From an uncultured Phycisphaerales bacterium (lineage in GTDB: Bacteria; Planctomycetota; Phycisphaerae; Tepidisphaerales; Tepidisphaeraceae), in contig CAVWLP010000002.1 of the NCBI GenBank assembly GCA_963755915.1, forward strand, positions 2,272,001-2,336,000: 64,000 bases of DNA, given 5' to 3'. A program made the translations under genes and the position numbers. This document shows positions 24,293-61,656 of this stretch, one piece after another (positions within the stretch are counted from its first letter, which is position 1; every line of letters begins with the position of its first letter). The notes beneath the pieces were generated by a model. That model made no database searches. It was not told the origin of the DNA and saw only the letters and a list, made by a program, of their open reading frames with translations.

Positions 24293-24346
24293 GATTTTTC
24301 AAAAATAGGTACAAAACGTACACCTTTTGGACCTGTATATAGATGC
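24293..24346 (+). promoter_or_regulatory. Bipartite motif copy A, upstream of phage-like operon
   Basis: CAAAAATAGGTACAAAACGT-N9-GGACCTGTATATAGA; same blocks on minus strand at 61603-61656. Confidence 0.75.
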
Positions 24347-24395
24347 ACAGTATTAAACGCACGCAAGTGCGGCTGAAGTGATATCCACTCGCATC

Positions 24396-24456
24396 CGGCG
24401 GTGGGGCGGGAAGTCGCGGGCAGCCTCCTTCCCGCGATGCTCCGCCGCCGTTTTTT
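24396..24456 (+). terminator. Leader hairpin with U-tract (attenuator-like or small RNA)
   Basis: CGGCGGTGGGGC/GCTCCGCCGCCG outer stem, TCGCGGG/CCCGCGA inner stem, loop CAGCCTCCTT, T6. Confidence 0.6.
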
Positions 24457-24485
24457 GGGGTTTCAAATATTGAGAGGATTGGATT

Positions 24486-24863
24486 ATGTGCGCTCGATTT
24501 TTGAGGCTGGGCAGTGTTGCCGCCGCATTCGCGGTTGTGTCCCTGGTCGCGGCTTGCGCGGCGATGCAGGTTCCGAATAATCCGACGACCCAGGCGTTTG
24601 GGGAAGCAAGCGCGGTGACGGGGGCGATGGCTTCGACGGTGGCCCTGGCGGCTCCGGTTCCCTGGGGGCAGGTTGTGGCCAGTGCGCTGGGGGCGATCAG
24701 CGTGATCGCGGGGATCATTGCCCACAGCACGGTCTCGAAGAATAGCGCTCAGGAAGTGACCAGCGCCGTGGCGACGGGGATTCAGGCGGCGTCGCAGACG
24801 CTGGGAATTGGCGCGGGGCCCGCGGCGCCGTCGAACGCGGCAAACGCTCTGGCGGTGAAATAG
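24486..24863 (+). CDS. Small membrane/lipoprotein-like protein (holin/spanin-like position)
   Basis: Hydrophobic leader with VAAC lipobox-like motif, second hydrophobic helix; GAGAGGA RBS. Confidence 0.55.
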   Translation: MCARFLRLGSVAAAFAVVSLVAACAAMQVPNNPTTQAFGEASAVTGAMASTVALAAPVPWGQVVASALGAISVIAGIIAHSTVSKNSAQEVTSAVATGIQAASQTLGIGAGPAAPSNAANALAVK

Positions 24864-24903
24864 AACGTGCATGCTTTTGGGAAATAGCCGGAGAAAATAA
24901 TCC

Positions 24904-25169
24904 ATGCCGCCGCCCACCTTTCGATCTGGACACGGAATGGCTACGCCGATGGTTCGTGGGACGAATATCGGTTGCACGTCATTCAAAGCCTCAAGCGGAT
25001 TGACGACGGGCTGGAAAAACTGTGGCAGGCGATCTCGGATGTTAAGCGGGATGTGACGGCACTTAAGATCAAGGTGGCCGTATGGATCGCGGCGTTTGGA
25101 TTTGCGGGGGCGTCGATTCCCATTATTGTGGATGCGCTACTGCGATGGAAAGAAATCACGGCACAATAA
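24904..25169 (+). CDS. Coiled-coil + single TM protein (holin-like), probable frameshift near start
   Basis: WDEYRLHVIQSLKRIDDGLEKL..LKIKVAVWIAAFG. Confidence 0.5.
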
Positions 25170-25176
25170 TCAGGCG

Positions 25177-27165
25177 ATGGGGAAAACTATGAGGCATAGA
25201 CATCGGGGATTGAAAATTACGTTTGCCGCGCTCGTCGCGGTTGGTTTGCTGGCGACTGCGATTGCGCAGGTTTATCAGATTCAGACGAACGTAATGGATT
25301 CGAGTGGCCGGGTTATCGCGACGGCGACGACGCAGTTGAGCCTGGGGGCGCCGGCGACGAATCCGAGCGCGACCACGCAGGCGACGGGCGATGCCCAGCC
25401 GGCTGGAGCGACGGTCGCAGCGACGGCCGCTGGGCCGGGTTATCCGGCGATGGCTGGGAAGGTCTATCCTTCGGATGCATGGCTGAAGACGTTTTCATAT
25501 TTCAATGCGACGGCGGCGGATCCGGCCGGGTGGATCGACCTGGCGCCGCTGATTCCAGCCAATGCGTCCATCGTTTGCGCGAGGAGCAGCCCGCTTTATC
25601 AGGCAGGCTATTACACGGACGGCGCCAGCGCCTGGCAGGCGGCGATTGCCAATGGATCGAAAACCGTGCTGTTCCTCTACGGCGGGGGCGATACGTCCGT
25701 GACGATTAAGGATTCGCTGCATCCTAATGGCGTGACGCTGAACGCTTTTTCGCCGGCGATGGTGGACTTCAGCGTGCAGAGCACGACGGGAACCGCGGCG
25801 CGGCCGATTATCATCAGCAGCATCGATACCAGTGGAGTGTGGGATCAGTACAACGAATCGGAACGGCCGATCCTGGAAAACAATATTCCAATCGCCGGCA
25901 ACGCGACGCCGGGAGGGCCGGCGTGGGATTCGCCGATTCAGTATGTGATCTATGACCGGCTGCGGTTCTACAATCCCACGCGCGATCCCAGCAGCTCGCA
26001 ATTCAGCGGCAACTCGACAGCGCTCGGGGCGGGCAACACGGCGATTGGGATCGCGATAACTTCGTCCTGGGCGGAGGGAGTCAGCGGGTATTTCCTATTC
26101 GAAGACGTGAGGTCGAGCTTCTTCCATTCGATGTTCGATCTGGAGAATGACCAGCAGGGATCGCAGCTTAACACGATCATCATTCGGCGGTGTGTTTGCG
26201 ACAATAACTATGCGGGGCAAGTCGATTACGGCTCCTTTGATTCGGACATTCAGGACTTGCTCGTCGCCGATTCGACGTTCGATCTGAATGGGTGGAATCC
26301 GACGGTCACGGGAAAGACGGATGCCCAGGGGCGGGAGCATGATTGGTATGACGCGATCTGGCCGTCGTGGGACAGTCGCGATCCGCTGCACCGGTTCGTG
26401 AACGATATTTTCGCGCGACCGATGGCGGATGGGATCGAAGGCAATGCGCCCGACACGCTGATCGATCACCCGGTATTTGTCGCGTGCCCCATAGCCGGGT
26501 ACTGCGGTGCGGGAGGCGTGGGGGTGATTCAGAATTATCTGGTTGATGGCGGCAGCGGGGCGTTTGATGTGCTGGGGCCTGGCAGCGGTCTGTCGCTGAC
26601 CTGGCCGACGGTCAACGGGAATGGGCGTGGGTGGGGCGTCTATCTGGATTGTGCGATGACGGGGTCGCTGATCAATGGGATCACGCTTGGCAAGGCAGAC
26701 GCGAATGATGCGGCCATCAATCCGGGACAGGCAACCGGCGTGCATTGCGAAGATGCGCAGAAGGGATTGCCGAGCGAGGCCACGGCGGCAACTTTGACGA
26801 ATGTGCGCGTACATGATTGGTATGAGTGGAATGGCGGCGCGTCAAATCCTTCGGCAGCGAATGTCGTGAACCTGAGCAATGCGGGGCCTCCGCAGCCGAC
26901 GATTACGTATGGCAATTGCGTGTTGCCGGGCGTGAACGGGGTTACCGGCGTCAGCGCGGTCGAGCCGAATTACGTCGACGACACGCGCTGCGTGGCGACG
27001 TATGCAGCCGGGCTCGGTATCGGTGGTGTTGTAGATGCGCCGAGTTTTCTGACGGCGGCGGACGATAACTGGTCGGCCCCCAATGAGACGGCGTCTGGCT
27101 ACAACGTGAACCTGGCGGCGACGGCGGTGTTCAATTGGGTGAACGCGGGATTTCAAACGAGATGA
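25177..27165 (+). CDS. Secreted beta-helix-like protein
   Basis: Sec-type signal (RHRHRGLK-hydrophobic-AIA), Thr/Ala linker, beta-rich N/D/G body. Confidence 0.65.
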   Translation: MGKTMRHRHRGLKITFAALVAVGLLATAIAQVYQIQTNVMDSSGRVIATATTQLSLGAPATNPSATTQATGDAQPAGATVAATAAGPGYPAMAGKVYPSDAWLKTFSYFNATAADPAGWIDLAPLIPANASIVCARSSPLYQAGYYTDGASAWQAAIANGSKTVLFLYGGGDTSVTIKDSLHPNGVTLNAFSPAMVDFSVQSTTGTAARPIIISSIDTSGVWDQYNESERPILENNIPIAGNATPGGPAWDSPIQYVIYDRLRFYNPTRDPSSSQFSGNSTALGAGNTAIGIAITSSWAEGVSGYFLFEDVRSSFFHSMFDLENDQQGSQLNTIIIRRCVCDNNYAGQVDYGSFDSDIQDLLVADSTFDLNGWNPTVTGKTDAQGREHDWYDAIWPSWDSRDPLHRFVNDIFARPMADGIEGNAPDTLIDHPVFVACPIAGYCGAGGVGVIQNYLVDGGSGAFDVLGPGSGLSLTWPTVNGNGRGWGVYLDCAMTGSLINGITLGKADANDAAINPGQATGVHCEDAQKGLPSEATAATLTNVRVHDWYEWNGGASNPSAANVVNLSNAGPPQPTITYGNCVLPGVNGVTGVSAVEPNYVDDTRCVATYAAGLGIGGVVDAPSFLTAADDNWSAPNETASGYNVNLAATAVFNWVNAGFQTR

Positions 27166-27171
27166 ATATCC

Positions 27172-28878
27172 ATGCAGGGACGATATATCGGACAATTTCT
27201 CCCGGCCTCGGGTGGGACGATGACGGGAACGCTCTCCATGGGCGGCAATGCCTTCAACGGCGTCACCACGATCGCCGACACGGGCGGCAATCAGCAGATC
27301 ACCCTCGATCCAGTTAACGGATCCGTGAATTTTCTGCTCGGGGATGGCTTGTGCACCGACTCATCCGAGGAGGGCGGGCTCTATGCGAAGACGGCTGGCG
27401 ATCCCATTTTGTACGGAAACTCGATCCAGCTCGATGCGACGAGTACGAGCATCCAGCTCAGCGCTGGCGGCACGATGTCGCTCACGGGGAAGACACTGAC
27501 TGCAACGGCGACGGTCGGCAACCTTCAATTAAGCGCGTCGTCAACGCTCAGCCTGTCGTGCGGCGGGGGATCGCTGGTCCTTTCAACGACGAACGCACTG
27601 TCTGGGGCGACCACGTTCAACAACAAGCTGGTGCACTCCACCTGGACGGCAACGCAGCTCATTTGCGTCGATGGGACAAATGGCGATGACACCAACGGCG
27701 ACGGGACGGCGCAGAATCCGTTGAAGACGCTCACGCAGGCGGTGAGCGTCGCCACCTCGGGCATGTGCATCTTCCTGGGGCCGGGGACCTACGCGGGCGG
27801 GGAAACGATTGCCTCGGGAGTGAGTCTAGTCGGATCGGGGCGCGGTGTTACCACGGTATATAAGAACTCGGCGGCGGTGCTTGCGCTCTCCAACTCGGCA
27901 TACCTGGCGAACCTGACGGTCTCCGGCGCGACACAGTCGGACAGCACGTTTGGTGTTCCGATATCGGTTGCCGGTGGGACGACCGGGTCGCTTTCGTGGG
28001 TGTTGGATAATGTCTCGCTGTACTGCCCCGCGGACGGCGTTCTGCTGAACGGCACCGGGGTTACGGGAGGCGCACTTACATTCTTCAACTGCCAGTTTTT
28101 CACCGGGTGCTGGTCGATTTTGGATTCGATCGGGCTTTCGATCGACGCGTACGATTGCGGCTGGACGTATTTTAATTTCACCAATCGCACGACGCCGCAG
28201 ATCGCGGCCGTCGTTTGCAACGCGAACAACTCGATCTTTCGGGCGTTCGGCGGAAATGTGACGGTGAATTATTCCGGAACCGCAACAAATTTCACCGCCA
28301 ACGCGGTGGTCATGGGGCCGGGATCAACGAATAGCAATGCGCAGTTTTATGGAACCAGCATTTACTTTAATTGTCCGAACATTCCCTCCACCGCGCTGTG
28401 CACGCCATTCAACCAGGATGGGACGGGGACATCGACGGTGATCGTGGGAAGGGGGTCGGCGTTCAACGGGACGTATCAAAACTCGACAACCAACGGGCTG
28501 TTGAGCGGTTACTTCCCGGCGATTGTGGTGCCGGATTCAAATTACGCACTTGGCGTTTCATCGATCGCGGTGACGCCGCCCTATTTCATGGATGATGTGC
28601 AGAATGAAGTCGCGGTCGATGCGGGAACGCTTGCGTCCAATACCCTGACGATCAATGCGCCTTCGCCCGGCGTGGCGAGCGACCGCGGCAAGGTGTCATT
28701 TCGCGTCAAGAATACCAACAGCGGATCGACGGCGATGACGCTGTCGCTCAATGCCGTCTATAACGTGGGCTCGACGACGGTGGGCACCATCGCGGCGGGA
28801 AAGCGGGCGTATCTGTCGTTTGTTTACGACACGGACAATTCGAAGTGGGACCTGACGGGCTACAGCAACGGATTATGA
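27172..28878 (+). CDS. Tail fibre/spike-like beta-helix protein
   Basis: FLPASGGTMTGTLSM fibre-type repeat; VDGTNGDDTNGDGTAQNPLKTLTQAV..IFLGPGTY pectin-lyase-like start; T/S/G/N rich. Confidence 0.65.
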   Translation: MQGRYIGQFLPASGGTMTGTLSMGGNAFNGVTTIADTGGNQQITLDPVNGSVNFLLGDGLCTDSSEEGGLYAKTAGDPILYGNSIQLDATSTSIQLSAGGTMSLTGKTLTATATVGNLQLSASSTLSLSCGGGSLVLSTTNALSGATTFNNKLVHSTWTATQLICVDGTNGDDTNGDGTAQNPLKTLTQAVSVATSGMCIFLGPGTYAGGETIASGVSLVGSGRGVTTVYKNSAAVLALSNSAYLANLTVSGATQSDSTFGVPISVAGGTTGSLSWVLDNVSLYCPADGVLLNGTGVTGGALTFFNCQFFTGCWSILDSIGLSIDAYDCGWTYFNFTNRTTPQIAAVVCNANNSIFRAFGGNVTVNYSGTATNFTANAVVMGPGSTNSNAQFYGTSIYFNCPNIPSTALCTPFNQDGTGTSTVIVGRGSAFNGTYQNSTTNGLLSGYFPAIVVPDSNYALGVSSIAVTPPYFMDDVQNEVAVDAGTLASNTLTINAPSPGVASDRGKVSFRVKNTNSGSTAMTLSLNAVYNVGSTTVGTIAAGKRAYLSFVYDTDNSKWDLTGYSNGL

Positions 28879-28881
28879 GCC

Positions 28882-29879
28882 ATGGCCAACGAAATCCAAC
28901 AGCAATACATTACGGGCAAGACCGTCTACGCAACGGTGACGCGGGCCGATGGCGAAGTCTGGCGGACCGACACCAGCGTGTTCGAAGCGCGAACTTCGTC
29001 GGACTGGGCCCACTACGCGATCACGACGAGCGAGGCGGGTGCGACCGGGTATTACGTCGGCAGCTTTCCGACCGGGATCACGGCGGCCGGAAGTTACAAC
29101 GTGCAGTTCTGGCGCAAGCGGGAAGCAGCCCGAGCGTGACGGATTTGAATAATGGGATGTTGGGAGGCGTGATTTACTGGACGGGGAGTGCCGAGGCGTT
29201 TGCGCTGGCGTCTTCGGCGGCGAATGCGGCCAACGCGGCGATGAACGGGCAGAATCTTGCCGCGAACATCGTGCAGGTTGCCGGGCAGAGCGCCAGCGCG
29301 GCGGGGGCGGTGACGTTTCCCGCGTCGATCGGCACGAGCACCTTCGCGGCGGGGGGGAACGTGAATGTGACACAGATCGCCGGGCAGACGGCAAGCGCGT
29401 CAAGTCCGGTGACATTTCCGGGCTCAATCGGCACGAGCACGCTGACGCAAACGCAGGTGACGGGGGGATCGTATGCATTGAGCACGAATTCGTCGGGGCA
29501 GGTAAATATCGTGCCGAACCAGGCGGTGAATGTGGCCCAGTGGAACGGCTCGGCGGTTTCGCTGAGCGGGGGATTGCCGAATGTCAGCGGCGGTGGCGGC
29601 GGAATCGATTCCGGGCCGATTCCGATCAACCAGGATACGGGCGGGACGGATAATCTCCGGTACGTGGACGAATCGGGAAACGGCGTGGGGGATGCGAATA
29701 TTTTGGTCTACCTGGCGACGGATTGGCCGGCCAATCCCAGCGCAGTCCAGGCGACGGCGATGACCGGGCCGGACGGAAGATGGCTGGCGCCGGCGTTTGT
29801 GCAGAGCGGGACGTATGTGGCGGTCTTCACGAAACTGGGGGTGGATGGGCCGGATGTTTCGGCGGCGTTTACGGTGTGA
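28882..29879 (+). CDS. Putative virion structural protein (frameshift ~29115) with internal repeat
   Basis: NIVQVAGQSASAAGAVTFPASIGTST / NVTQIAGQTASASSPVTFPGSIGTST. Confidence 0.6.
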
Positions 29880-29925
29880 ATCGCGACATTCGTCGTGATA
29901 CGCGGAGTTTTTTCGAGGAACCAAT

Positions 29926-30372
29926 ATGCCAGTGACGGCAACGCCAATTAATGACGGCTCGGCCGCGGGGCAGTATGCCGCGCAGAGCGATGTCGAGTCG
30001 CAGTTCGGGATCGACAACGTGCGGGTGTGGTCGCAGCTCGACAACACGGTTTGCACGGCAGACGTGGCGCGAATTCAGCAGGCGCTGAATTACGCGGATG
30101 GGATGATCATCTCGACGTTCGCGAATTTCGGGAATTACGTGACTCCGCTGGCGCCGGTTGGAACGGACGCGGTGCTGGTGACGCGATGGGCGGCGGTGAT
30201 CGCGGGGGCGTGGCTTTATCAGTCGCGCGGGTTTCGGGATGAGGATGTTGAGGGGGATCACCTGGCGAAGCTGCTGAAGGAAGTGGAGGGGGAGATGCTG
30301 CGGTACCGGGCGGGCGAGAAGCTGAACGCGGCGCGAAGATGGCCGGCAGCGACGGCGCCGGTGGGATATTGA
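29926..30372 (+). CDS. Mu gp36/DUF1320-like head-tail connector
   Basis: YAAQSDVESQFG, IQQALNYADGMI, YVTPL, WLYQSR. Confidence 0.7.
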   Translation: MPVTATPINDGSAAGQYAAQSDVESQFGIDNVRVWSQLDNTVCTADVARIQQALNYADGMIISTFANFGNYVTPLAPVGTDAVLVTRWAAVIAGAWLYQSRGFRDEDVEGDHLAKLLKEVEGEMLRYRAGEKLNAARRWPAATAPVGY

Positions 30373-30382
30373 GGGGGGTCGT

Positions 30383-30899: not shown

Positions 30900-32107
30900 T
30901 CGAGTGTCCCGTGCAGGAGAGCTTCCGGGCGAGGCAGGTCGCCGGGATGTTTGATCTGCCGGTGGATTCCGGAATGCGGTCCTCGTTTTGCGTGAAGGTG
31001 CCGACGCTGGATGAGCATTGAAGCATCGGAGCGATCGTGGGGCCGAGCGGGTCTGGAAAGACAACGATCGCGAAGCGGGCGTTCGGGGCGTGGATGCCGG
31101 AAGAGTGGGATTGGCCGGGAAATCAGAGCATTCTTGAGGGTTTCCCCGCGGAGATGGAAATTCGCCGGATTACGCAGTTACTCGGCAGCGTAGGGTTCAG
31201 CTCGCCGCCGGCGTGGATGCGGCCGTTTCATCTGTTGAGCAATGGGGAACAGTTTCGCGTGACGCTCGCGCGCACGCTGGCGGAGTTGCCTGAGCTGGCG
31301 GTTGTGGATGAGTTCACCAGCGTGGTGGACCGGACGGTGGCGAAGATCGGATCGGCGGCGGTGAGCCGGGCGGTGCGCCGAAGCGGCAGAAGATTCGTCG
31401 CGGTGAGCTGTCATTACGACATTCTTCCCTGGCTGGAGCCGGACTGGGTCGTGGACATGGGAAATGCCGAACCGCAGCCGGAGGCGAGGAGCGGTACGCC
31501 GCATCGATCGGACGCCGTTCGCCCGGAGGGCGGACCACCGTTGCCAGATCCCGAATCAAATGAAGAAGCACGGGGGTGGCTTCGGCGACCGGACATTCGG
31601 TTGGAGATCGTGCGGTGCGATACGTCGGCGTGGAGAATATTCAGCCGTCATCACTATTTGAGCGGCAGGTTGCATTCATCGGCGTTTTGTTTTTTAGCGT
31701 TGATTGAAGATCAGCCGGCGGCGTTTGTGGCGGCGCTGCCGTTTCCGCATGCGACGCATCCTGGCTGGCGGGAGCATCGCTGTGTCTGCCTGCCAGATTA
31801 CCAGGGAGTGGGGATAGGCAATGCCGTCAGCGAATTTGTCGCGTCGCTGTTCGTCGCGACGGGGCGGCCATACACAAGCGTGACCAGCCATCCGGCGATG
31901 ATGCATCATCGTTCGCGCTCGCCGCTGTGGCGCGTGCGGCGGGGGCCGTCGCGGGTGGTGCGAAATAAGAATCGCGGCGGTGTCGCGACTGGAATGGACA
32001 GATCGATCAGCAGCCGGCGGATGACCGCGAGCTTTAAATTTGTGGGATGCGCCAGGTTTGAGGCGGCGCAGGCCTTTGACCTGCTGCGAAACGTGGAGGT
32101 TTTATGA
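30878..32107 (+). CDS. ABC-type ATPase fused to GNAT/Mom-like acetyltransferase; in-frame TGA at 31019
   Basis: GPSGSGKTT, LSNGEQFR, VVDEFTSVVDR; W..FSRHHYL, VCLPDYQGVGIG. Confidence 0.8.
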
Positions 32108-32406
32108 GATCGGAGCTTTCCGACGAACTCGTGCGGGGTCTGGCGGTTGAGGGGGCTACGGATGAGGACATCTGCGAAATCTACGGCCTGACGCGTGCTC
32201 AGCTTCTGAGCAGCTTTGGGCATGTATTGAAGGAGGCACGGGCGCACAGGAGGGTGTTGTTGCGGAAACTGCAGAATAAGGAGGCACAGAAGGGAAATAC
32301 GACGATTTTGGCTCTACTGGGGAAAAATGAGCTGGGGCAAGACCGACGAGAAAGAGCCGGCGACGATCATTGGCCCGAACCACAACTGGGCGAGAAGGTG
32401 GGTTGA
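32104..32406 (+). CDS. Terminase small subunit-like
   Basis: N-terminal HTH (GATDEDICEIYG), GNTTILALLGKNELGQ; precedes large terminase. Confidence 0.7.
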   Translation: MRSELSDELVRGLAVEGATDEDICEIYGLTRAQLLSSFGHVLKEARAHRRVLLRKLQNKEAQKGNTTILALLGKNELGQDRRERAGDDHWPEPQLGEKVG

Positions 32407-33657
32407 GCTTCGGCCGCACGATGAGCAGCTTCGGCTGTGGAACGACGGCACGCGCTTCAAGCTGGTTCCCGCTGGGCGGCGCAGTGGGAAGACCGAGCTG
32501 GCGAAACGCCGGCTGGTGGAGCACCTGTTCCGTAAGACGTTTCACGGGTTGCCGGGATGTTATTTCGCTGCCGCGCCGACGCGTGCTCAGGCGAAGCGGA
32601 TTTTCTGGAGAGACCTCAAGTCGCTGATCCATCGCGGGTGGATCGAGAAGATCAACGAGACCGATCTCCAGATCATCACGACGGTGGGATCGGAATTGTG
32701 GGTACATGGGCTGGACGTTCCCGAGCGCGTGGAAGGCAGCCCCTGGGACGGTTGTGTGATCGACGAGATTGCCAACTGCAAGCCGGGGATCTGGGATGCG
32801 CACATTCGCCCGGCACTGGCGGATCGGCGCGGGTGGGCATGGCTCATTGGTGTGCCGGACATGTTTGGGCCGGCGCAGATAGATTATGAGCGGCTTGCCT
32901 TGTGGCGCAAAGCAAGACCGATCCGGATTGGGCCTATTTCAGTTGGCCTTCGACGGAAATTCTGACGGCCGAGGAAATCGAATCGGCAAGCAGGCGCATG
33001 GATCCGCTGATCTTTCAGCAGGAATATCTCGGCAAGTTTGTGACTGGCCGCGGGCGGGCGTTTGCGGGATTCGATCCGGCGGTTCACGTGAAACCAACGC
33101 CGTACGATCCGTCGCTGCGGATTTGCTGGTCGCTGGATTTCAATATCGATCCCATGTGCAGCGGCGTGATTCAACACCATCGCGGAATGGTGCGGGTGAT
33201 TCACGAGTTTTCCCTTCCGGACACGGACACCAACAGCGCGTGCGACGCGCTGCTGGAGATGGCAACGGCTCGAGGCTGGGACCTGCACGACTTGACGATT
33301 TATGGCGACGCCAGCGGCAGCGCCCGCGATAGCACGAGCGGCATTTCCGATTGGAACATCGTGCTGCGCCGGCTGCACAATTTGTCTCCGCACTTGAAGG
33401 TGCCCAGGGCAAATCCGCACGTAAAGGACACGGTGAATGCGGTTCGGGCGATCCTTCGGACCGACGGTAATGCCCGGCGTTTGTCGATCGATCCGCAGTG
33501 CGGGCGGTTGATCGAAGATATGCGGACGGCCGTGTGGCCGGGGAATCTCGATCTTCATCACGCGCTGGCCTGGCTGCGTTATTTCGTCGCCTGCGAGTAT
33601 CCGCTGGAAGCGCCGCGGATTGTTACGCCCGGAGTGGTCGCATTTTCGAAATGGTGA
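32327..33657 (+). CDS. Terminase large subunit (frameshift ~32900)
   Basis: AGRRSGKT, AAPTRAQAK, VIDE; nuclease SLDFNIDPM, YGDASG, NPHVKDTVN. Confidence 0.9.
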
Positions 33658-33662
33658 TCGAT

Positions 33663-34980
33663 ATGAGCTTGAATGAAATGTCCATCATCACGCTGGACCC
33701 GCGGTCCGAGCTGGTGGGTTTGGCTAACATCCCCGCGAAAGTTCCGGCGGTGGGAGAAAAAACGCCGGCGCAGACGATTTCCCCGCCGGGCGGAATTCCC
33801 TCAGCGAGCGCGATGGGACTGGCGGGGTTTTTCCAGGCGCCGTCGGGAACGTATCAGACGTATCGGCAGATTTCTGCCCATCCGACGTGCGCGCTGGTGC
33901 GCGGAATCGTGACGGCGCCGATTGTGGGAAACTCTTGGCAGTGGAAGAAGAGCCGGGAAAATGTTCCGGATGAATGGGTGAATTTCGCGCGGGAGGTGAT
34001 GACGCCGCTGCGGCAGTCATTGGTGCGCGATGTTCTGCGAGCGCTGGAATTTGGGTGGGCGGGGTTTGAGAAGATCTGGACGGTTGAGGCCGGCCGGCGG
34101 GTTCTTTCCCGGCTAAAGCCGCTCCAGTGGGATTTCACGGAGATTCTACTGGACGAGCATGGAAATCCGGCTGGACTGCGCAATCGGCCGCCGGAGGGTC
34201 CGCCGGTGCTGCTGGGGAAGGGGAAATATTTTCTCTACAGCTTCGACGGTGAGGCGGCGAATCCATATGGGCGGTCGCGGCATGAAAACGTCCGCCAGGC
34301 CTGGTCGGAAAGCGAGCAGATTCGCGAGCGGCTGGCGCAGTATATGAAGAAGGTTTCGGGGATCGTCGTTCAACTCCATTACCCGGAGGGAACCAGCCGC
34401 GATGTGGCGGGCGCGGATCGGCCGAATCAGTGGCTTGGGCAGCAGGTGCTCGATTCCGTGTCGGCCGGCAAAAGCGTGATGTTTCCCAACGGTTTCGCGG
34501 CCACGGGCGATTTGAAGACGGCGTACGAGCTGGCCGGCAAGAGCTCCTGGCAGCTCTCGACGCTGGAAGTGCAGGGAACCGATCATGCGCCGGGAATGAA
34601 GCTGGTGATGGAGTATTACGACGCGCTGATTTTCCGCGGCTGGCTGCGGCCGGAACGCGTGGGGCTGGAATCGCGGCTATGCCAGCCGGGCCGATGCGAA
34701 GATTCATACGGATACCGGCACGCTCGACTGCGAATTGATCGACCGCGACATTGCCGATGCGGTGACGCGGGACGTTGTTGACGAATTGCTGGTGCTGAAC
34801 TTTGGAAAGCGTGCCGCGGGCGCGGTCGCGATCGAGCCGCCGCCCATCGAGAACGATGCATTGGGCGTTCTGCGCGACGCTTTGAATCTGCTGATTAACA
34901 AGGACAGCGCGGCGGTTTCGGCGAAGATCGATCTGCCGGCGCTTTTGGATCAACTTTCGGTTCCGCGAACGGCGTCCTAA
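33663..34980 (+). CDS. Portal protein, DUF935/Mu gp29-like (frameshift ~34680)
   Basis: ALEFGWAGFEKIW, NPYGRS, LLVLNFG; follows terminase. Confidence 0.8.
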
Positions 34981-45983: not shown

Positions 45984-46719
45984 ATGCCAAAAGTGATTGT
46001 AAATAATCCAAATATAGTTTTAGAATCTTCATCGGGAGAAACCGGGTTTGCCGGGGCGGCGCTCCGGTCGGCAGCGATCGACGAAGGCGATATGGCGGCG
46101 GTTCGTCTGCTGCGGCAATTCAGGCAGGAAATCGAGGAACTCGCCTGTAGCGCGACCTGGGCGGACGACTGTCTTTTCCGCGGCGCCCGCTACGCGCCGG
46201 ATTTCCGATGTGCCTGCGCGAACTGCCGCAAATTTTTCCCCACCCGGCTGCATCCCAGGCCGTTCCGGGAATCGAAATACTCGACCGATTGCCAGGTTGA
46301 GACCGACGAAGACCCGGAATTCGCCGAGGAATTTGCCCGGCTGCGCAACGATCGCCCGCGGTTTGGCAGCGTTTTCGCCCGCCACCCGCGCATCTCAATG
46401 GAAAAGAACCAGATTCACGCGGGAGATTGACGACGCGGGAGGAAGATTATATCGATCCTTTCGGTGACGGAAAAGCAGCATGAGGTTCTGTGGCTGCGGT
46501 ACAACCAGCGCAAATCGACCCGTGAGATCGCCGTCCAACTCGGCATTCAACGCCGCGCTGTGATGGCCCGGCTTCGCCGTGCGCAAGCGGCTGACGACAA
46601 TGCAAAGCGATTGCAGCCGCACGGAAAAACCTTCCGCTCAGCCGGAAAAACCGCGGATGGTCAGCGCCTCGCAGACCCTAGTAAAAGGCCAGAGCGGTTG
46701 GAGCATGGAGGATCTTTGA
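45984..46719 (+). CDS. Cys-motif + sigma-70 region 4 HTH protein (in-frame TGA at 46428, probable frameshift ~46640)
   Basis: CACANC; TEKQHEVLWLRY..KSTREIAVQLGIQRRAVMARLRRA in the same frame as 45984. Confidence 0.6.
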
Positions 46720-46723
46720 ATGT

Positions 46724-48564
46724 TTACGACCCGCCGAGTCCCGGCGGCGGGCCGCCAGGCGTGAAGCCACCGGGCGGATACCCTCCGGGCGGTCCCGCGG
46801 GCCCGCCGCCGGGCGTCTGCGGACTCGGAGTGGCGCCAGATTGCTGCGTCATCCACTGATTGCTCTGCTTGTATTCGGGACTGTCGGCGTCCTTTGCCAG
46901 CACCACGGTTCCCTGCTGGTCGACCAGGTAAATGTGGGTCTTGTTGTTGCGGTCGAGCTGCCGATCCACAAACGTGTAACCTGTCGAGTAATCGACACCC
47001 CCGTCAGCGCCGCCGATCGGGTCGCCAACATCGACGTTGAACGTCTCTTTCTGCCACTTTCCGGCAGACCAGGTAAAGACATCGAAGGGATAGGTCGTTC
47101 CATGTCCCTGTGGCGTGCCGCAATAACAGTAGGTCTGCGCGGGCACTTGGATTTCCGGTGAATAGTCGCTCATTGGCGAATCAAGATCGAACTGATTGAT
47201 CCAGGCGGCATGATTAGCGGCTACGCGTTGCGGCGGTTTGTTGTAAACTGGATTGTACGCCTTATAGGAGATGCGATAGCGATAGGTTCGCCCCGGCTGT
47301 GCGCTGGTATCAATGATGTATATGAAGAGGTCCGGGGATTTTTCCGGCATGCCGATGAGGTTGTTCTGCTTCAAGGCGGAAATCGGCGTCGGAGTGATCA
47401 CCACGTTTGGATTGATATAGACCACCTTGGGATCGACGGTCCCCTCGGCGGGGGGGATCGCAGTCGCTTGCGGTTGAGGCTGCGGCTGCGGCTGTTCCTG
47501 CGGCTGCGGTACCGGCCGCCGGAATCCTCCGCCTGGAGGTCCCCCAAACCCACCCGGGCCCCCCCCCCGCCCGGCGGGCCGCCAAATTGGGCATAAAGCG
47601 TTCCGGATAGATCCGAGGCGTTCGCCGTGCGCCAGCGTTCTTTGCCGTTTCCGTTGGTCGCCCCGCTCTGATCCGGCGCGGCGCCGCCTGGCTGGTTTGA
47701 CGTGCCGGGGAGATATTGCAGCGGGTCTTTCCAGGTCGCGCCGGCGATGACCGTCGGAATCGTCGGAGCCACAACCGTATTCGGATCTTTGTTCAGCGCC
47801 AGCATATAGTCGCTGGCTTGCTGGCGGTTTCCGGGCGCGGGATAGGGGGGCAGGTCGGAGCCGTTAATCAGGTGCATCGCATCGCTGTCCTGCACCCAGT
47901 TGTCGCCAATTTTCTGCCAGCGTTCCGCGGTAACCGCCACGACCTGGAACTCCGCCGGCGAAAGCCGCGGCTGCTGGCCGGGCTTGGGGGGACCGAATGC
48001 CTGATTCCACTGGTCATACAATTGCGCCCACGGAATCGTGAATCCAACTACCACAAGCCGAACATCTTTGCCCCCGGCTGCCGCCGCGGGTTGTGCGTTG
48101 TTAGCTCCAGGAGTCGCCAACGTGTCCAGGCCAGCGGCGGTGAGAATGGGCTGCGGCGCCGGCGGCTTTGGCAACTGCTGGACTGGAATTCCCAGCGCAT
48201 GACCCTGCATGGCCGATGTATTGACGTCAAACGGAGAGAAATCGAAATCCCCGCCGGCCAGTTCCTGCGGATTTTCGGGCTCGAGACGGATCCATTTGTC
48301 GAGGTTCTGCCCAAAATCCTTAACGGAAAAGGAAGGAACATCGCCGGGCTGGGTTATTTGGCGAAGATGCTCCGCCGCGTGCGTGTCGATGAAATTATCG
48401 ACGTTGGCCGGGGTCACCTCTGTCCCGCCGAGTTCGCGCGAGACGGGGCTGTTGACTAGGTAGGTCCAGACCGTCCAGCCGAGGTAGCCGACGGCTATCA
48501 GAAGCGCAATCCATTCGACGTTCGCTTCAAGAAACCGCGTGATTTTTCGCATGAAACCGTTCAT
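46724..48564 (-). CDS. Pilus-assembly-locus membrane-anchored protein (frameshift in Pro/Gly tract)
   Basis: N-terminal TM, QPGRTYRYRI, Pro/Gly-rich; operonic with pilM. Confidence 0.6.
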
Positions 48565-49991: not shown

Positions 49992-50015
49992 GTGAACACC
50001 AATCGATAAAAACCG

Positions 50016-55398: not shown

Positions 55399-55402
55399 TA
55401 CT

Positions 55403-56004: not shown

Positions 56005-56018
56005 CAGGAGATAAGATT

Positions 56019-57077: not shown

Positions 57078-57122
57078 GCGGCCAATCGCCAAATTATTGT
57101 TGGTAGCGTATCATTCGCGCCC

Positions 57123-57803
57123 ATGGTCGCGCTCGCCGATTCGGCAAGTTTGCTGCTGCTTTCGTGGCAGAATTTCTACGTGATGATCGGATCGTCGGCG
57201 GGAGCATTGATCGGGCTGCAATTTGTCGTGATTACGCTTGTCGCCGGCACTCGCCAGCGTGCGAGCATGGAAACGGTCAACGCCTTCGGCTCGCCGATCG
57301 TCGTGCAATTTGGCGCGGCATTGGCCATTTCAGGGATGATGGTTGCACCCTGGGGTTCAGTGCATTCGATCTCAATTGCGCTGGCGCTCTGCGGCGTTGC
57401 GGGCCTTATGTATTCCATCATCGTAGTTCGCCGGGCCCGCCATCAAGCGGGATACAAACCGGTCCTGGAAGATTGGGTTTGGTACGTGACAGCGCCATTG
57501 GTTACCTATGCGACCCTTGCGATCGCTGCTGCCCTCGTTTGGGTGGATACAGGAATCGGACTGTTTATTGCCGCGGGAGCAATCTTATCTTTGTTGCTTA
57601 TCGGAAGCCGCAATGCCTGGGATACGGTAACGCACCTCGCCTCGATTGGGTCGGCGCGCCGGAAGAAACCAGGGAATCGGCATCCGGCGAAACAAAGCGC
57701 GAAGTTCATTAATTCGGCGCGGCTCTGCGCCGCCGGCCGCTCATCAGGTAGACGGACGCCCGCAATTCGAGCAACGGATCGGCCGATGATTCGATTCCCG
57801 TGA
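57123..57803 (+). CDS. Multi-pass membrane protein
   Basis: WQNFYVMIGSSAGALIGLQFV, RNAWDTV; 3' end overlaps catalase so true end is probably earlier. Confidence 0.75.
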   Translation: MVALADSASLLLLSWQNFYVMIGSSAGALIGLQFVVITLVAGTRQRASMETVNAFGSPIVVQFGAALAISGMMVAPWGSVHSISIALALCGVAGLMYSIIVVRRARHQAGYKPVLEDWVWYVTAPLVTYATLAIAAALVWVDTGIGLFIAAGAILSLLLIGSRNAWDTVTHLASIGSARRKKPGNRHPAKQSAKFINSARLCAAGRSSGRRTPAIRATDRPMIRFP

Positions 57804-58668
57804 CCCGGGGAATTGGATCGAAGATGATCTGCTTCTGCTCGGCGGCATCGTTGGTTACCAGTTTGTCCAGCACGATTTTTCCGAGCTCCATCACCTTGCG
57901 GTCCTGCGGCCAATGCACGGTCGCATCGTTGGTGATGTCGCCGTCGTTGGCCAGTTGGACCATGACGCGAAATTCGATTGGTCCGCGTGCGATGCGCTGC
58001 TTCAGTTCGTCGAAAAGATAATTCGCGCCCTTGGTTTGCGCGGTTGCTTCGTCGAGGGTTTCGTTGCCCTCGGCGGGGACGATTCGATACTTTCCAAACC
58101 GGCTTATTCCTTTGCTGTTAATAAACTTATAAGCAATGATGGCGAAAAATGTTGTGCGGGCGAAACTTGAAGGGGCGGCCTTGGGCGCCTGAATAAAGGC
58201 CAGGGCCGCCGGGTGGGTTCCCAGGAATTTCTCGATCGGCTTGGGGTTCTTCGGGTCGGAGGGGGTGGACATATCGCTGGTGGCGAGGGCCTTGAGCAAT
58301 TCCAGGAATTCCTCGCCGGTGCGGGCTGGGAATGCATCGACGGAATGGCTGACGATATCCGTATGACTGTGCTCCGCGAGCTGAAAACGGATCGCCATCC
58401 CGCGCGGAGCGGCATGCGGATCGTTGTCGGGAATGTCCGGCACTCCAGGCGAATCGGAAAACCGGACTATCACCGGCGTCGACGGCCGTTGAATGTGCGG
58501 CGCCATCGTCAACGAAACGGCCTCGCTCGAAGGCGTGAATGTTCCGCTGAGCAGCGTCCCCTTGGCGTGGGCCGGACGAAATCCGGGATGGTATCCAAAG
58601 ATCGCGTCAAATTGTTCGAGGATTTTTTGACTTAATGCGAGAAGCTTTTCGTCGGTGGGCAGGGGCAT
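57709..58668 (-). CDS. Catalase-related peroxidase (SrpA-like)
   Basis: HPGFRPAHAKG, VRFS, RGMAIRF, FDP, DPLLELRASVY. Confidence 0.92.
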   Translation of the reverse strand: MPLPTDEKLLALSQKILEQFDAIFGYHPGFRPAHAKGTLLSGTFTPSSEAVSLTMAPHIQRPSTPVIVRFSDSPGVPDIPDNDPHAAPRGMAIRFQLAEHSHTDIVSHSVDAFPARTGEEFLELLKALATSDMSTPSDPKNPKPIEKFLGTHPAALAFIQAPKAAPSSFARTTFFAIIAYKFINSKGISRFGKYRIVPAEGNETLDEATAQTKGANYLFDELKQRIARGPIEFRVMVQLANDGDITNDATVHWPQDRKVMELGKIVLDKLVTNDAAEQKQIIFDPIPRVTGIESSADPLLELRASVYLMSGRRRRAAPN

Positions 58669-58824
58669 GATGCATCTCCCGTTCAAGAGCGGCAGAATCG
58701 GTCGTAAGCCAAGACCATAACGATCGCTACGGTAGGCACAACCTTGGCGAGTTTCCACATCAATCTGTTAGAATTCTGAGCTGGCCCAGCGCGACGATTC
58801 GTTTTACCGAGTCGGGATTCGATC

Positions 58825-60330
58825 ATGATTAAAAATGTCATCGTACTTGGCGCAGGCACCGCCGGTCTGATGGCCGCCCTGGCGCTTAGACGCAAAATTC
58901 CGCAGCTTCAGGTGCAGGTTATTCGAAGCCCCGATATTGGGGTCATCGGCGTCGGCGAGAGCACGACGCCGCAGTTCGTTCAATTCCTCTTCGAATATCT
59001 TGGGATCAAACGCAAACCGTTCTATGAATCGGCCAGGCCAACCTGGAAGACCGGCATTCATTTTCTCTGGGGCCCGCGGGAGTCTTTCAACTTCGCATTC
59101 GATTTGCAGCTTGATGGGCAGTACAAGGGTCTTTCACGGCCCAACGGATTCTACTGCGGCGAAGAATTCGACAGCGTCAACCTCAACGCCGCGCTGATGT
59201 CCCAGGCTAAGGCATTTGCCGCCCAGCCCAACGGCGGTGGGCCTGAGATCGGGTCTTGCGCCGCATTTCATCTCTTCAACCCTCTGTTGGTCAAAACTCT
59301 TGAACGCATTGCCGTTGATCGCGGCATTACGTTCATCGACGTGCGTGTCTCTGGGGCGACCCTGGATGAGCAAGGTGTCCGATCCATCGTGCTCGAAGAC
59401 GGGCGTCACATTGAGGCAGACTTTTTCATAGACGCGAGCGGTTTTCGCTCCGAACTTCTCAAAGGGGCACTCAAGACGCCATTTGTATCTTACGACAATT
59501 CGCTTTTTACGGATCGCGCGATTGTGGGCAGTTGGGACCGGACTGATGACTTCATCTATCCCTACACCATCGCGGAAACGATGGATGCAGGCTGGTGCTG
59601 GCGAATCGACCATGAGTGGACCGTCAATCGCGGCTACGTCTATTCGTCCCGCTTCCTAACGGACGACGTCGCCAGGGACGAATTTCTCAAGAAAAACCCC
59701 AAGGCCAACACGTGGGATCACGTCGTGAAGTTCCGGTCCGGGCGTTATCGCGAAGGATGGGTGGGCAATGTTTTTGCGATCGGAAACTCCTGCGGGTTCG
59801 TGGAGCCTTTGGAAGCCACGGCACTGATGGTCGCTTCATCGCAAATACAGACGATGGTTACCCTCCTAATCGATTCCCAGCTCGATCCCGGGCCGCGGAT
59901 GAAATCGCTCTACAACACGACTTTTGCGGAACTGTGGGACAATATCCGCGATTTTCTGGCAATCCATTACCGCTTCAACAATCGGTTGAAAACGGATTTC
60001 TGGACGACCTGCTGCAATGAGGTTGATGTTTCAGCCATCCAACCGCTGCTCGAGTTTTACGAAGAAAATGGTCCAACTACGCTGGCGAGGCACTTGCTGA
60101 ACACCACCATTGGCGGAAAGACGCAGTTTGGGATTGAAGGGTTTCTCGTGCTTCTCGTGGGGCAGAAGGTTCCTTATCGGGCAGGCCAGCCTCTCAGCGA
60201 AAGTGAGCGAGGCATATTCCGGCGGTATTGCGAGGAGAATCGCGCGCGGGCGAAGTCGGGGCTTAGCGTCGCCGAGGCGCTGAAATATGTTAAGCATCCG
60301 CAGTGGACTTGGTTTGGTGACAATGGTTGA
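58825..60330 (+). CDS. Flavin-dependent tryptophan-halogenase family protein
   Basis: GAGTAG, IGVGEST, WKTGI, FIDASG, GWCWRI, GFVEPLEAT. Confidence 0.92.
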   Translation: MIKNVIVLGAGTAGLMAALALRRKIPQLQVQVIRSPDIGVIGVGESTTPQFVQFLFEYLGIKRKPFYESARPTWKTGIHFLWGPRESFNFAFDLQLDGQYKGLSRPNGFYCGEEFDSVNLNAALMSQAKAFAAQPNGGGPEIGSCAAFHLFNPLLVKTLERIAVDRGITFIDVRVSGATLDEQGVRSIVLEDGRHIEADFFIDASGFRSELLKGALKTPFVSYDNSLFTDRAIVGSWDRTDDFIYPYTIAETMDAGWCWRIDHEWTVNRGYVYSSRFLTDDVARDEFLKKNPKANTWDHVVKFRSGRYREGWVGNVFAIGNSCGFVEPLEATALMVASSQIQTMVTLLIDSQLDPGPRMKSLYNTTFAELWDNIRDFLAIHYRFNNRLKTDFWTTCCNEVDVSAIQPLLEFYEENGPTTLARHLLNTTIGGKTQFGIEGFLVLLVGQKVPYRAGQPLSESERGIFRRYCEENRARAKSGLSVAEALKYVKHPQWTWFGDNG

Positions 60331-60370
60331 AGGGGTTCCAGGCAGGGGCGGTCACCGGGTTTCGTTCTTA

Positions 60371-60733
60371 TCACACTTTGCGATTATCCAGGCTGTTGAT
60401 GAGGCCGGAAAGCATTTTGGAGATTTCCTCAAGATCGTTCTTCAATGCATCGTGCTGAGCTGGCTGAATGAACCCGCGCCGCCGGGCCAATTCCAATAGC
60501 GGCACACATTCCTGGACCGATCCGCGCGCGATGCCAAAGAAATTCGTCTTGTCAGGCGTGGTGAAGCGGCCATTGCCTTCGGCAATATTGGTCGATATGG
60601 ACAACGCCGCGCGATTGATCTGATCTGCCAGGAAGTAAAATCCGCGAGGGAATTTGCTTCCTAACTCGCAGATGCGATCTGAAAAATCAACGGTTTTTTG
60701 GTAGACGAGAAGTTTCTCGAATGCGAAGGCCAT
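60371..60733 (-). CDS. Four helix bundle (23S rRNA IVP-like) protein
   Basis: FEKLLVYQK, DQINRAALSISTNIAEG, IARGS.QEC. Confidence 0.92.
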   Translation of the reverse strand: MAFAFEKLLVYQKTVDFSDRICELGSKFPRGFYFLADQINRAALSISTNIAEGNGRFTTPDKTNFFGIARGSVQECVPLLELARRRGFIQPAQHDALKNDLEEISKMLSGLINSLDNRKV

Positions 60734-60750
60734 TTGCGCAAACCAAAAGA

Positions 60751-60858
60751 AAGTAGAGAGTAGAAAGTAGACCGGGGAGAGAGCCCAAATCGGCTGGGCG
60801 GCGTTATTCCACGCCGTCCGCTTTCTTGCCTTCTCTACTTTCCACTCTCTCCCCTCTA
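60751..60858. repeat. Heptamer-unit inverted repeat upstream of the four helix bundle gene
   Basis: AAGTAGA GAGTAGA AAGTAGA ... TCTACTT TCCACTC. Confidence 0.6.
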
Positions 60859-60879
60859 ATTTTCGCCTGCGGCGAGAAT

Positions 60880-61262
60880 TGGAGGCGTGGGGATTTGAAC
60901 CCCAGTCCCGTGACAACATCAGAGGCGGCCACTACATGCTTATTCGGTGTTTTGATCTCGATCCCGGCAACGAACATCGACATCCTTCGCCGGGGTCCAG
61001 CCGTCTAAAGTCTCGCCCTCCGACCAACGGCCGAATCGGAGAGCCAGGATCGCGTTTTTGCGGCCGATGTGATGCGATCCCTCACACCGTGCCGAGGTTG
61101 CCTTAATTAGGCAGCCATACGAACCGGGGCGGCCGTGAAGCCGACTCGGCCTGCAACATCGCTGTTGGCAGTTAAGGTTTGCTCGAATGATTATCCAGGC
61201 CAATCGAGCGTCCTGGGCATGCCACCGCCACCGCGGCTATCCGGTCGAAACCAGTCGCCCCC
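60880..61262 (-). ncRNA. ssrA: tmRNA
   Basis: 5' GGGGGCGACTGGTTTCGAC; 3' GGGGTTCAAATCCCCACGCCTCCA with G3-U pair; tag ORF ANSDVAGRVGFTAAPVRMAA* at 61169-61107. Confidence 0.96.
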
Positions 61263-61602
61263 GGTGGGTCAGAATTTCAAAGAACTGGCCGATTATATGT
61301 CGGATGGATTGGTAAGGGAATTCTGGGCTAAAATCGAGTAGGGAAGGGGTCTGGGCAATGGTGGCCCGGAGTTTCCCATTTTGGACTTCCCAGATTTTCT
61401 CACTTTTTCACACTTTTTAGAGAATTGGAGACAGCGGGGACTGCGCTGTGCAAGAGAGTAGAGCAGTGGATAGTAGAGGGATCGCTCTGGTCGATTTCCC
61501 AAAATTTCCCATTTTTCAGGCAACGGGGAGATGGGGATTTGAGATTTGAGGTTTCAGATTTTAGGTGAGTGGACATGGACACTCCGGCTCGAAAAGCATT
61601 AC

Positions 61603-61656
61603 GCCTCTATATACAGGTCCGGAAACGCACGTTTTGTACCTATTTTTGCAAAAATC
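61603..61656 (-). promoter_or_regulatory. Bipartite motif copy B
   Basis: Reverse complement CAAAAATAGGTACAAAACGT-N8-GGACCTGTATATAGA. Confidence 0.75.

Follow-up and report, generated by a model that had tools for sequence, protein, structure and literature searches.

Two identical bipartite motifs, termed copy A and copy B, were located 37 kb apart and on opposite strands in a 64,000-nucleotide stretch of DNA from an uncultured Phycisphaerales bacterium (the window; G000:C2:2272001-2336000 of the source genome G000, which spans 6.63 Mb in 3 contigs with 59% G+C), and our analysis suggests that both are, on the balance of probability, copies of a portable promoter/leader module of ~110 bp that occurs in one Phycisphaerales genus and, as far as sampled, one neighbouring genus. 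An earlier sequence-only reading of this DNA had reported boxes of 20 and 15 bp that are identical in both copies, and a search with the exact pattern CAAAAATAGGTACAAAACGT-N(6-11)-GGACCTGTATATAGA found precisely these two matches in the window, at 24300-24343 (+) and 61606-61648 (-), with 0 of 100 dinucleotide-preserving shuffles yielding two or more (mean 0.00). The inverted A-run/T-run tract that had been seen ahead of each copy was likewise recovered and is referred to here as palindrome P1 (Table 1). Two other parts of that reading did not hold, namely that the motif forms a pair of copies and that the spacer between the boxes is unrelated and free: the source genome contains 53 full-length copies and 4 copies split by an insertion sequence (IS), and genome-wide there are two spacer classes, one ACACCYTTT-like with 9 nt and the other GCACYTYY-like with 8 nt, the copy B spacer GCGTTTCC being an outlier of the latter.

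The copies in the source genome were collected by nhmmer with a profile built from the copies themselves. The full-length members lie on contigs C2 and C3, and besides the four interrupted by a 1490-bp IS there were one partial member and two diverged, mutually identical members. The shared stretch begins with an A-run, takes in P1, both boxes and their spacer, and closes with TTTTyC ~15 nt beyond box 2, so that ~75-110 nt are common to the copies, and about half of them extend further upstream with a sharp onset at …CAGATTCTTTGCATTC… or …CAGATTCTTTCGAACTTC…; in the upstream class of copy B, the likeness among copies begins abruptly at …CAGATTCTTT…. All 53 full-length copies are intergenic. 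Downstream proteins were scanned with Pfam at 31 of the 33 copies with a co-directional next gene, omitting L045, where the open reading frame (ORF) is 896 nt off and beyond the transfer-messenger RNA (tmRNA) gene, and L069, where it is 2.4 kb off at the locus edge. Matches to Pfam families were obtained for 26 of the 31 proteins, and their functions are unrelated: they comprise Ffh, IspG, an Fe/Mn superoxide dismutase, topoisomerase VI B, UDP-glucose dehydrogenase, a thiamine pyrophosphate (TPP) enzyme, peptidases, FdhD, DJ-1, a glyoxalase, an aldo-keto reductase, a cation diffusion facilitator (CDF) transporter, a small RelA/SpoT protein, a LexA-like repressor, DUF3987, four transposases and three HTH_23 proteins. 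The genome-wide scan and list of downstream genes that the sequence-only reading had put forward as a check thus gave ~57 copies and functionally unrelated genes, and the possibility it had named as damaging to its own case, a multicopy element in varied contexts, largely describes the family as a whole. A role as a stable-RNA promoter was rejected, with 0 of the 53 copies having a tRNA downstream, and Rfam, run on the module and the sequence behind it (the body) at 20 loci with E up to 0.1, returned nothing; in the window, Rfam matches the tmRNA only.

The distribution of the module was examined in the sister species (G001), in the rest of a genus set made up of G000 and 12 others (G001-G012), and, for the second genus, in one genome, G014; the genus genomes are kin and not independent samples. 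An alignment (A1) of 16 module regions from 10 species, taken upstream of the small-terminase-like genes described below, was used to build a sequence-only model (R1). It gave 64 matches in G000, 57 in G001, 26 in G002, 20 in G003, 26 in G004, 29 in G005, 43 in G006, 45 in G007, 21 in G008, 39 in G009, 43 in G010, 20 in G011, 13 in G012 and 20 in G014, counts that include half-copies and vary with assembly quality (genome completeness ranges from 59 to 93%). No R1 match was obtained in 13 genomes of other genera, and a survey of the family with one genome for each of 60 genera revealed matches in two genera and none in the other 58. The exact variant present in the window is narrower in its distribution, with 34 exact matches in G000, 40 in G001 and none in 39 other relatives; among species representatives, it was found in one other genome only, an uncultured Phycisphaerales metagenome-assembled genome with 40 loci. 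A phage origin was considered and rejected, with 0 exact matches in IMG/VR.

Among the 40 loci of G001, 29 are syntenic with a G000 copy, two correspond to G000 copies later split by the IS, two are clean presence/absence differences (L087, +470 bp; L113, +757 bp) and seven are unclear or rearranged; no clear target duplication was observed at the L087 and L113 indels, where the alignments are ambiguous. In the 29 orthologous pairs, identity amounts to 556/580 in box 1, 231/261 in the spacer, 423/435 in box 2 and 775/870 in the A-run and P1, against 0.60-0.64 in the flanking intergenic DNA. In G006, from which 40 of the 43 matches were fetched, only one copy is clearly syntenic with a G000 copy, at the copy A locus, and the downstream genes are mutually unrelated.

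Two blocks, AAAAcACGTCCAAAACyTTCACC and TAGAGGG, are conserved across the genus at a fixed distance with variable DNA between them. In A1, the columns AAAA, AA, C, G and TAGA are invariant, and CAAAA, T and ACC nearly so. The G006 copies keep AAAACACGTCCAAAACyTTCACC and TAGAGG(G), and the 14-15 bp between the blocks (yCCnGGnCC followed by an AT-rich run) vary in sequence from copy to copy at constant length. The right arm of a palindrome seen in the G000 core is not kept in other species of the genus, and RNAalifold returned 0 pairs and no consensus RNA structure on A1, indicating that the constraint lies on the DNA sequence as two blocks at a fixed distance. The general layout of bacterial promoters, with two spaced blocks and variable DNA in between, was found in A1, in the 40 G006 copies and in all 13 copy A loci. 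On sequence grounds, the module would be a promoter without the sigma-70 consensus that needs another sigma factor or an activator, in which a -10-like AT-rich hexamer would end in the invariant T of TAGA, AGAGGG would serve as discriminator and transcription would start at the following A/G, with CAAAAC at -35 and helically phased A-tracts and P1 further upstream. A promoter for an alternative sigma factor or activator had also been the suggestion of the sequence-only reading; the two-block layout, the intergenic position, the place ahead of a Shine-Dalgarno (SD) sequence and ATG at intact small-terminase-like genes, and the presence of copy A in 13 of 13 genomes speak for it in outline.

Several observations count against a promoter function. 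A scan for the sigma-70 consensus found 0 sites at 61200-61800 and 0 at 24150-24550, and the -35 position, 17 bp upstream of the AT-rich stretch, reads CAAAAC; no sigma factor could be assigned to the module. Co-orientation with genes is partial: the next gene is co-directional at 33 of the 53 copies in G000 and at 26 of 40 in G006, and it is convergent or missing at 20 and 14, respectively, so many copies would drive at most a short non-coding stretch; the gene calls behind these counts came from a simple purpose-written codon-bias caller and not from a standard tool. Copies within a genome are nearly identical and the variant has switched throughout the lineage, both of which can be explained by copy-and-paste spread or gene conversion as well as by selection, and conservation alone does not prove function for most copies. 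Metatranscriptome contigs (four runs, 60700-61900) cover 60881-61262 only, which is the mature tmRNA, partly from relatives, and leave the leader and the module uncovered; since such contigs cannot show transcript starts, they are uninformative either way on transcription of the module.

Particular promoter types were also tried and rejected. The GG-N10-GC of sigma-54 is not present on inspection, as the -12 position reads TA/AG and the copies with 8-nt spacers lack TTGG. An extracytoplasmic function (ECF)-type AAC-N16-TGTATA fits G000, but its -10-like part is not conserved in other members of the genus. A promoter for a phage-type single-subunit RNA polymerase was dropped, with PF00940 not found in G000 and control genomes equally silent, which leaves its absence unproven; TATAGA resembles T7/SP6 promoters, a resemblance that gained no further support. 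An upstream sigma-70-like promoter (TTGCAT-N17/18-AAAAAT), with which the core would come to lie in a 5' UTR, exists in some upstream classes only and is absent at copy A, and no conserved RNA structure accompanies it.

The sequences 3' of the module belong to subfamilies of shared pieces, including an SD and ATG with AAATCTSA repeats, a triple repeat such as AAGTGGGGAATTTTGGGGAAA and another such as CCCGGGCATTTTCGGACATTTTCGGACAT. They correspond to the opening 60-80 codons of genes for helix-turn-helix (HTH) proteins of 170-200 aa that form one family. One or more such 5' gene pieces lie within 450 nt downstream on the same strand at 36 of the 53 copies, and antisense at none. Five intact paralogues are present in G000, four of them with the module upstream, and the module stands 45-100 nt ahead of the SD and ATG of the intact genes. 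It precedes the gene at six of eight G000/G001 loci and, in a diverged form, at 9 of 22 loci in other genomes. Three PHROG terS (small terminase) families match the paralogues, in four of four tested, with E values of 1.9e-8 to 2.2e-6; Pfam gave HTH_23 just above the cut-off and Sf6_terminase at 26.5 bits against a cut-off of 27; and an AlphaFold2 (AF2) model (predicted local distance difference test, pLDDT, 74.5) revealed a three-helix HTH followed by a long helix, for which the best Foldseek match was 2ao9 ('Phage protein', E 3.5e-3), with the NV1 small terminase 7joq at E 0.6. No sequence match in the PDB and no NCBIfam family were obtained. On these results, the proteins are named small-terminase-like and not terminases. 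Their genes are solitary amid ordinary housekeeping genes, and no large terminase, portal or capsid gene adjoins them. A search for the gene detected it in G014 and in each of the 12 genus genomes besides G000, and gave no match in the remaining 26 genomes searched; in the family survey, the protein occurs in 8 of 60 genera and the R1 module in 2, and a strict co-occurrence of the two fails, since six protein-bearing genera have no R1 match. The fifth paralogue of G000 (L080/L187; G000:C2:3393857-3395937) is without the module and carries a canonical TTGACT-N17-TATAAG promoter instead. The gene directly after it encodes a 437-aa protein with sigma-70 regions 2 and 4 (r2+r4).

The locus of copy A is shared across the genus. 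In each of the 13 genus genomes, the module stands at the same site, downstream of the DUF2203 gene, which is transcribed divergently, and the P1 tract aaaaATyCnCGGATTTTT is kept there genus-wide. In most of the 13 genomes, the module is followed by ACCnCAnTAAA, a GC-rich hairpin with an internal CCACCTCCTT and a T-run, and then the SD and ATG of a lipoprotein-type gene; G010 and G011 align poorly downstream of the module. The loop region of the hairpin carries an anti-Shine-Dalgarno-like CCTCCTT (CCACCTCCTTACC in relatives), and BLAST found no close paralogue of this leader in G000. The 125-aa lipoprotein-type protein has no family match in Pfam, PHROG or NCBIfam, and its gene has BLAST matches in 8 of the 13 genomes. 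No terS-like fragment is present at copy A. The version of the module found here is, in each species, that of its own lineage, indicating that the G000/G001 variant replaced an older form there too. By these sequence comparisons, copy A is ancient, and its transcript would start just 3' of box 2.

Copy A had been placed upstream of a phage-like operon, which is correct only loosely: the first Mu-like gene detected (Mu gp36-like, 29926-30372, +; a weak match) begins 5.6 kb away, behind the terminator-like leader and three other ORFs, and Portal_Mu follows at 33498-34781 (+), also a weak match. This phage-like region is Mu-like, and its ORFs at 31037-33657 appear broken up, a P-loop piece coming first and several overlapping ORFs after it, suggesting a decayed large terminase and a defective prophage in the window.

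Copy B had been placed upstream of the tmRNA gene, and the upstream position stands; on the tmRNA coordinates (Table 1), the copy ends 343 nt from the mature 5' end and is not directly at the gene. A TTGCCg…TATAnT block lies ~30-60 nt ahead of the mature tmRNA 5' end in nine of nine genus genomes examined, the module near the tmRNA occurs in G000 and G001 only and is absent in the other seven, and homology among genus members ends ~45 nt upstream of the tmRNA. Judging from these alignments, the tmRNA does not appear to need copy B, having a conserved promoter of its own. This tmRNA promoter can also serve as a reference for the housekeeping promoters of the genus. The body of copy B carries an SD and ATG (61571-61585), an AAATCTSA repeat (61536-61561) and phased GGGAAA repeats (61491-61514 and 61371-61416), and no HTH domain follows this 5' fragment. 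On the far side of the tmRNA, a long ORF for a protein of the 23S-rRNA-intervening-sequence type (60371-60919, -) overlaps the tmRNA 3' end; its Pfam match begins at residue 68, and the true start codon therefore probably lies downstream of the tmRNA gene.

Table 1. Features of the two module copies and their immediate surroundings, in window positions.
Feature	Position	Strand	Details
DUF2203 gene	23459-23890	-	Pfam PF09969, 9.5e-34; synteny anchor, matched in 13/13 genus genomes
Copy A palindrome P1	24282-24299	+	AAAAATTCTCAGATTTTT, A-run/T-run
Copy A box 1	24300-24319	+	CAAAAATAGGTACAAAACGT; lineage-specific form of genus block AAAAcACGTCCAAAACyTT
Copy A spacer	24320-24328	+	ACACCTTTT, 9 nt, includes conserved CACC
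Copy A box 2	24329-24343	+	GGACCTGTATATAGA; final TAGA invariant in genus
Leader after copy A	24344-24456	+	Ends in long GC-rich hairpin and T-run (24397-24456)
Lipoprotein-type gene, first after copy A	24486-24863	+	125 aa, signal …LVAAC…
tmRNA gene	60877-61262	-	Rfam, 137.8 bits; ARAGORN
Predicted sigma-70-like promoter of tmRNA	61292-61320	-	TTCCCT-N17-TATAAT, 30-58 nt upstream of mature 5' end
Copy B body	61371-61585	-	Decayed 5' piece of small-terminase-like gene, by comparison with intact genes
Copy B box 2	61606-61620	-	Exact 15-bp box
Copy B spacer	61621-61628	-	GCGTTTCC, 8 nt
Copy B box 1	61629-61648	-	Exact 20-bp box
Copy B palindrome P1	61650-61668	-	AAAAAATCCCCGGATTTTT, A-run/T-run inverted tract
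Copy B left module boundary	61682-61702	-	TGTCAGATTCTTTGCATTCGG

The IS that splits four copies has perfect 17-bp terminal inverted repeats (TAATCCCGTTCGGCACG) and 9-bp target duplications, as at L081:1033-2522 (G000:C2:1217732-1219221), and encodes a 420-aa ORF; the ORF of a near-identical copy matches DDE_Tnp_1. G000 holds 23 full copies (22 besides the L081 copy), none of them in the window, and each is at least 99.7% identical to the reference copy, indicating recent activity. The four copies within modules sit at one common position, and another lies in the body behind the module copy at C2:292497. The IS was rejected as the vehicle of spread, as it targets ACAAAACGT-like sites generally and only 4 of the 23 full copies are in a module. 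The transposase gene that appeared to start at the module at C2:2495819 was likewise traced to a separate IS inserted in the body. The two mutually identical diverged members (C2:1476092-1476147 and C2:2155949-2156004) have an older-looking form of the module (CAAAAACACGCCCAAAACTTTCACCTGCTGGACCCAATTATAGTGAGA) that is closer to the form of other genus members than to the G000 variant, and they lie within a larger duplication. A group II intron match (RF00029, 53.6 bits, E 1.1e-7) at L037:214-297 (G000:C2:1299374-1299457) ends ~50-100 nt upstream of the module copy at C2:1299561.

A further subfamily is marked by a conserved non-coding body of ~150-250 nt behind the module, reading …GTCAACGGTAACGAAACCCC…CACTAAC… in G000 and …CCAGTAACAGTAACA…GGCCCTGGCGCTATCGAAAACGCGGA… in G006. 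It was found in G000 at C2:1247086, 1657663, 2495819, 3062446, 4409438, 4656568 and 678359 and at C3:890997 and 1031288, and in G006 at no fewer than 10 loci among L209-L231. Reading frames are not kept, several of the loci lie between convergent genes and none has an Rfam match, and the subfamily is a candidate for a small RNA family driven by the module.

From the copy numbers, distribution, conservation pattern and contexts described above, we infer the promoter activity, start site, binding factor and mode of spread of the following proposed mechanism. The module would consist, from 5' to 3', of a CAGATTCTTTGCATTC… head (in many copies), P1, the A-tract-phased AAAAcACGTCCAAAACyTTCACC, 14-15 variable bp ending AT-rich, TAGA(GGG) and TTTTyC; it would be bound by RNA polymerase together with an activator or a sigma factor other than the housekeeping one, and would direct rightward transcription from just 3' of TAGAG. 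Its home context would be upstream of the solitary small-terminase-like genes, from which copies would spread, together with the first codons of the gene, into other intergenic regions, decay to a promoter with a 5' fragment, and in some cases land before unrelated genes. In the G000/G001 lineage, one sequence variant would have replaced the older form at all copies, the ancient one included. Copy A would be that ancient copy, fixed between the DUF2203 and lipoprotein genes at the head of a conserved terminator-containing leader, and copy B a lineage-specific one that landed with its decayed gene fragment ahead of the tmRNA.

The closest rival to the portable promoter module, and one compatible with it, holds that the module and the phased GGGRAW repeats form a packaging (pac) recognition site of the SPP1 type for the small-terminase-like proteins, acting in packaging initiation, or in autoregulation and regulation by these proteins, and not primarily on RNA polymerase; we regard it as unlikely. 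According to the passages of PMC4737164 drawn on here, the SPP1/SF6 pac site spans the promoter and the start of the gene for the small terminase and includes sets of direct repeats, and the dispersed unit of module plus first codons of a terS-like gene shares this arrangement of promoter, terS start and direct repeats, a resemblance of architecture only. The first codons of the unit carry three repeats ~10 bp apart, and at L043 this DNA triple repeat is intact though the residues SGEFWGNLGN diverge from the family consensus G-SE-IWDI; moreover, every module-bearing genome has a terS-like protein, and the PHROG terS matches point the same way. The SPP1 site, however, is described in PMC4737164, as far as those passages go, as a single phage site beside packaging genes, whereas dozens of chromosomal module copies exist and the terS-like genes have housekeeping neighbours with no adjacent large terminase, portal or capsid gene. 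The protein family also reaches six further genera without the module, one G000 paralogue has an ordinary promoter, copy A lacks any terS-like fragment, and the same passages of PMC4737164 report that the DNA-binding domain of SF6 did not favour the box repeats. A broader conjecture, to which we give a slender chance, is that the small-terminase-like HTH proteins use the dispersed module and phased GGGRAW repeats as a DNA address, either (a) as pac-like sites for packaging host DNA by a phage-derived or gene transfer agent (GTA)-like machine, or (b) as a self-spreading regulon.

With a slim probability, the module is a selfish repeat resembling a miniature inverted-repeat transposable element (MITE), functionless at most sites, whose conserved look stems from recent copying or gene conversion and of which a few copies, such as copy A, were co-opted. 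The turnover of copies (a single clearly syntenic copy between G006 and G000), the clean presence/absence differences at L087 and L113, the partial co-orientation with the next gene and the lineage-specific spacer sequence common to copies within one genome are consistent with this. Correia elements (CREE) of Neisseria are dispersed intergenic repeats of ~100-150 bp with terminal inverted repeats and a target duplication that are able to supply promoters to neighbouring genes, and the module resembles such elements in being multicopy and intergenic and in varying in presence between close relatives. It differs in that no terminal inverted repeats flank the four intact cassettes and no clear target duplication was seen at the two clean indels, and, compared with Correia elements, in its polarity, with a constant 5' end and a variable 3' end to which a gene fragment is attached. 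The G006 copies, diverged in the spacer yet keeping block 1 and TAGAGG, point to selection on those blocks, and copy A is retained in all 13 genomes, both of which argue against a selfish repeat.

Correia elements are named as promoter-bearing miniature repeats in PMC3575422 (Nijveen et al. 2012), which summarises the work of Matus-Garcia, Nijveen and van Passel (2012) on putative mobile promoters (PMPs). As summarised there, PMPs are sequences with ≥80% identity over ≥50 nt upstream of genes without homologous coding sequence; they are not tied there to a known mobile element and are proposed to rewire transcription, and most families are pairs (PMC3575422). As near-identical non-coding DNA upstream of unrelated genes, the module falls within this definition and far exceeds its threshold, but with 13-64 members per genome across a genus, it differs from the mostly paired families described there (PMC3575422). 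It differs further in having a home gene family, an attached 5' gene fragment and one positionally fixed ancient copy. A narrow search of the literature on mobile promoters and planctomycete promoters found no description of the module. Of the concepts already described, the PMP comes closest to the module; unusual here are its scale, its spread across a whole genus, the gene fragment carried along and the ancient copy that has stayed in place.

It is improbable that the phage-like structural operon and the tmRNA belong to one regulon under a dedicated alternative sigma factor or activator, for which the 45984-46719 protein would be a candidate, as the sequence-only reading had proposed. The bipartite conservation fits a sigma-type site (AAC-N16-AT-rich-TAGAG), and one terS-like paralogue adjoins the sigma-70 r2+r4 gene. 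Nevertheless, with ~57 dispersed copies, the motif does not make a private two-site regulon of phage-like genes and tmRNA, and the wider host regulon fares no better: only part of the copies are co-directional with the next gene, the 31 downstream genes scanned are functionally unrelated, the tmRNA has its own conserved promoter with copy B confined to G000 and G001, and the first Mu-like gene lies far past copy A behind a terminator-like leader. The proposed factor is likewise not supported, as ORF 45984-46859 (+) has an in-frame TGA at 46428-46430 and a Pfam match to Sigma70_r4_2 (2e-8) only after it, with no sigma-70 region 2 found; by its sequence, it appears to be a broken gene or a small HTH protein with a region-4-like HTH and not a complete sigma factor.

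Very improbable, finally, is the other suggestion of that reading, a site-specific recombination site for inversion or cassette exchange, which would be built of 10-12-bp imperfect inverted arms, ATAGGTaCAAAA / TTTTGGACCTgT, around an 8-bp centre like the core of a tyrosine-recombinase site; the arm symmetry is present in G000 and G001 (including L068 I3), and orthologous copies of these two genomes often diverge immediately 3' of the core. Unlike a lox/dif-like core, however, the module has this symmetry in G000/G001 only, the right arm being unconserved in other genus members and the symmetry therefore lineage-specific; the 24 Phage_integrase matches in G000 are not systematically beside copies; the 37 kb from copy A to copy B are collinear in G001 with their flanks (L108, L109), without inversion; and in gapped alignment the seeming swaps behind the core resolve into discrete insertions and deletions of gene-fragment pieces downstream of an unchanged core.

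For genome annotation, the portable promoter module carries two warnings: small ORFs after modules are gene relics, and for most copies it is incidental whether they stand 'upstream of tmRNA' or 'upstream of a phage operon'. Should the module prove to be an active promoter, it would represent promoter propagation on an unusual scale, with dozens of copies turning over between species and an identifiable source gene family, and would offer a natural system for how bacteria rewire transcription by copying control regions. It would also be a candidate for a strong, portable promoter in planctomycete genetics, a field with few defined promoters. The link to the small-terminase-like proteins is the part that could prove to be new biology. 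If these proteins do use the module and its repeats as a DNA address, the lineage-wide switch of the module, copy A included, would record the co-evolution of protein and site, and in the self-spreading form of that conjecture, a domesticated terminase-type DNA binder would control a portable promoter under which housekeeping genes, small RNAs and the conserved leader-lipoprotein operon have been captured.

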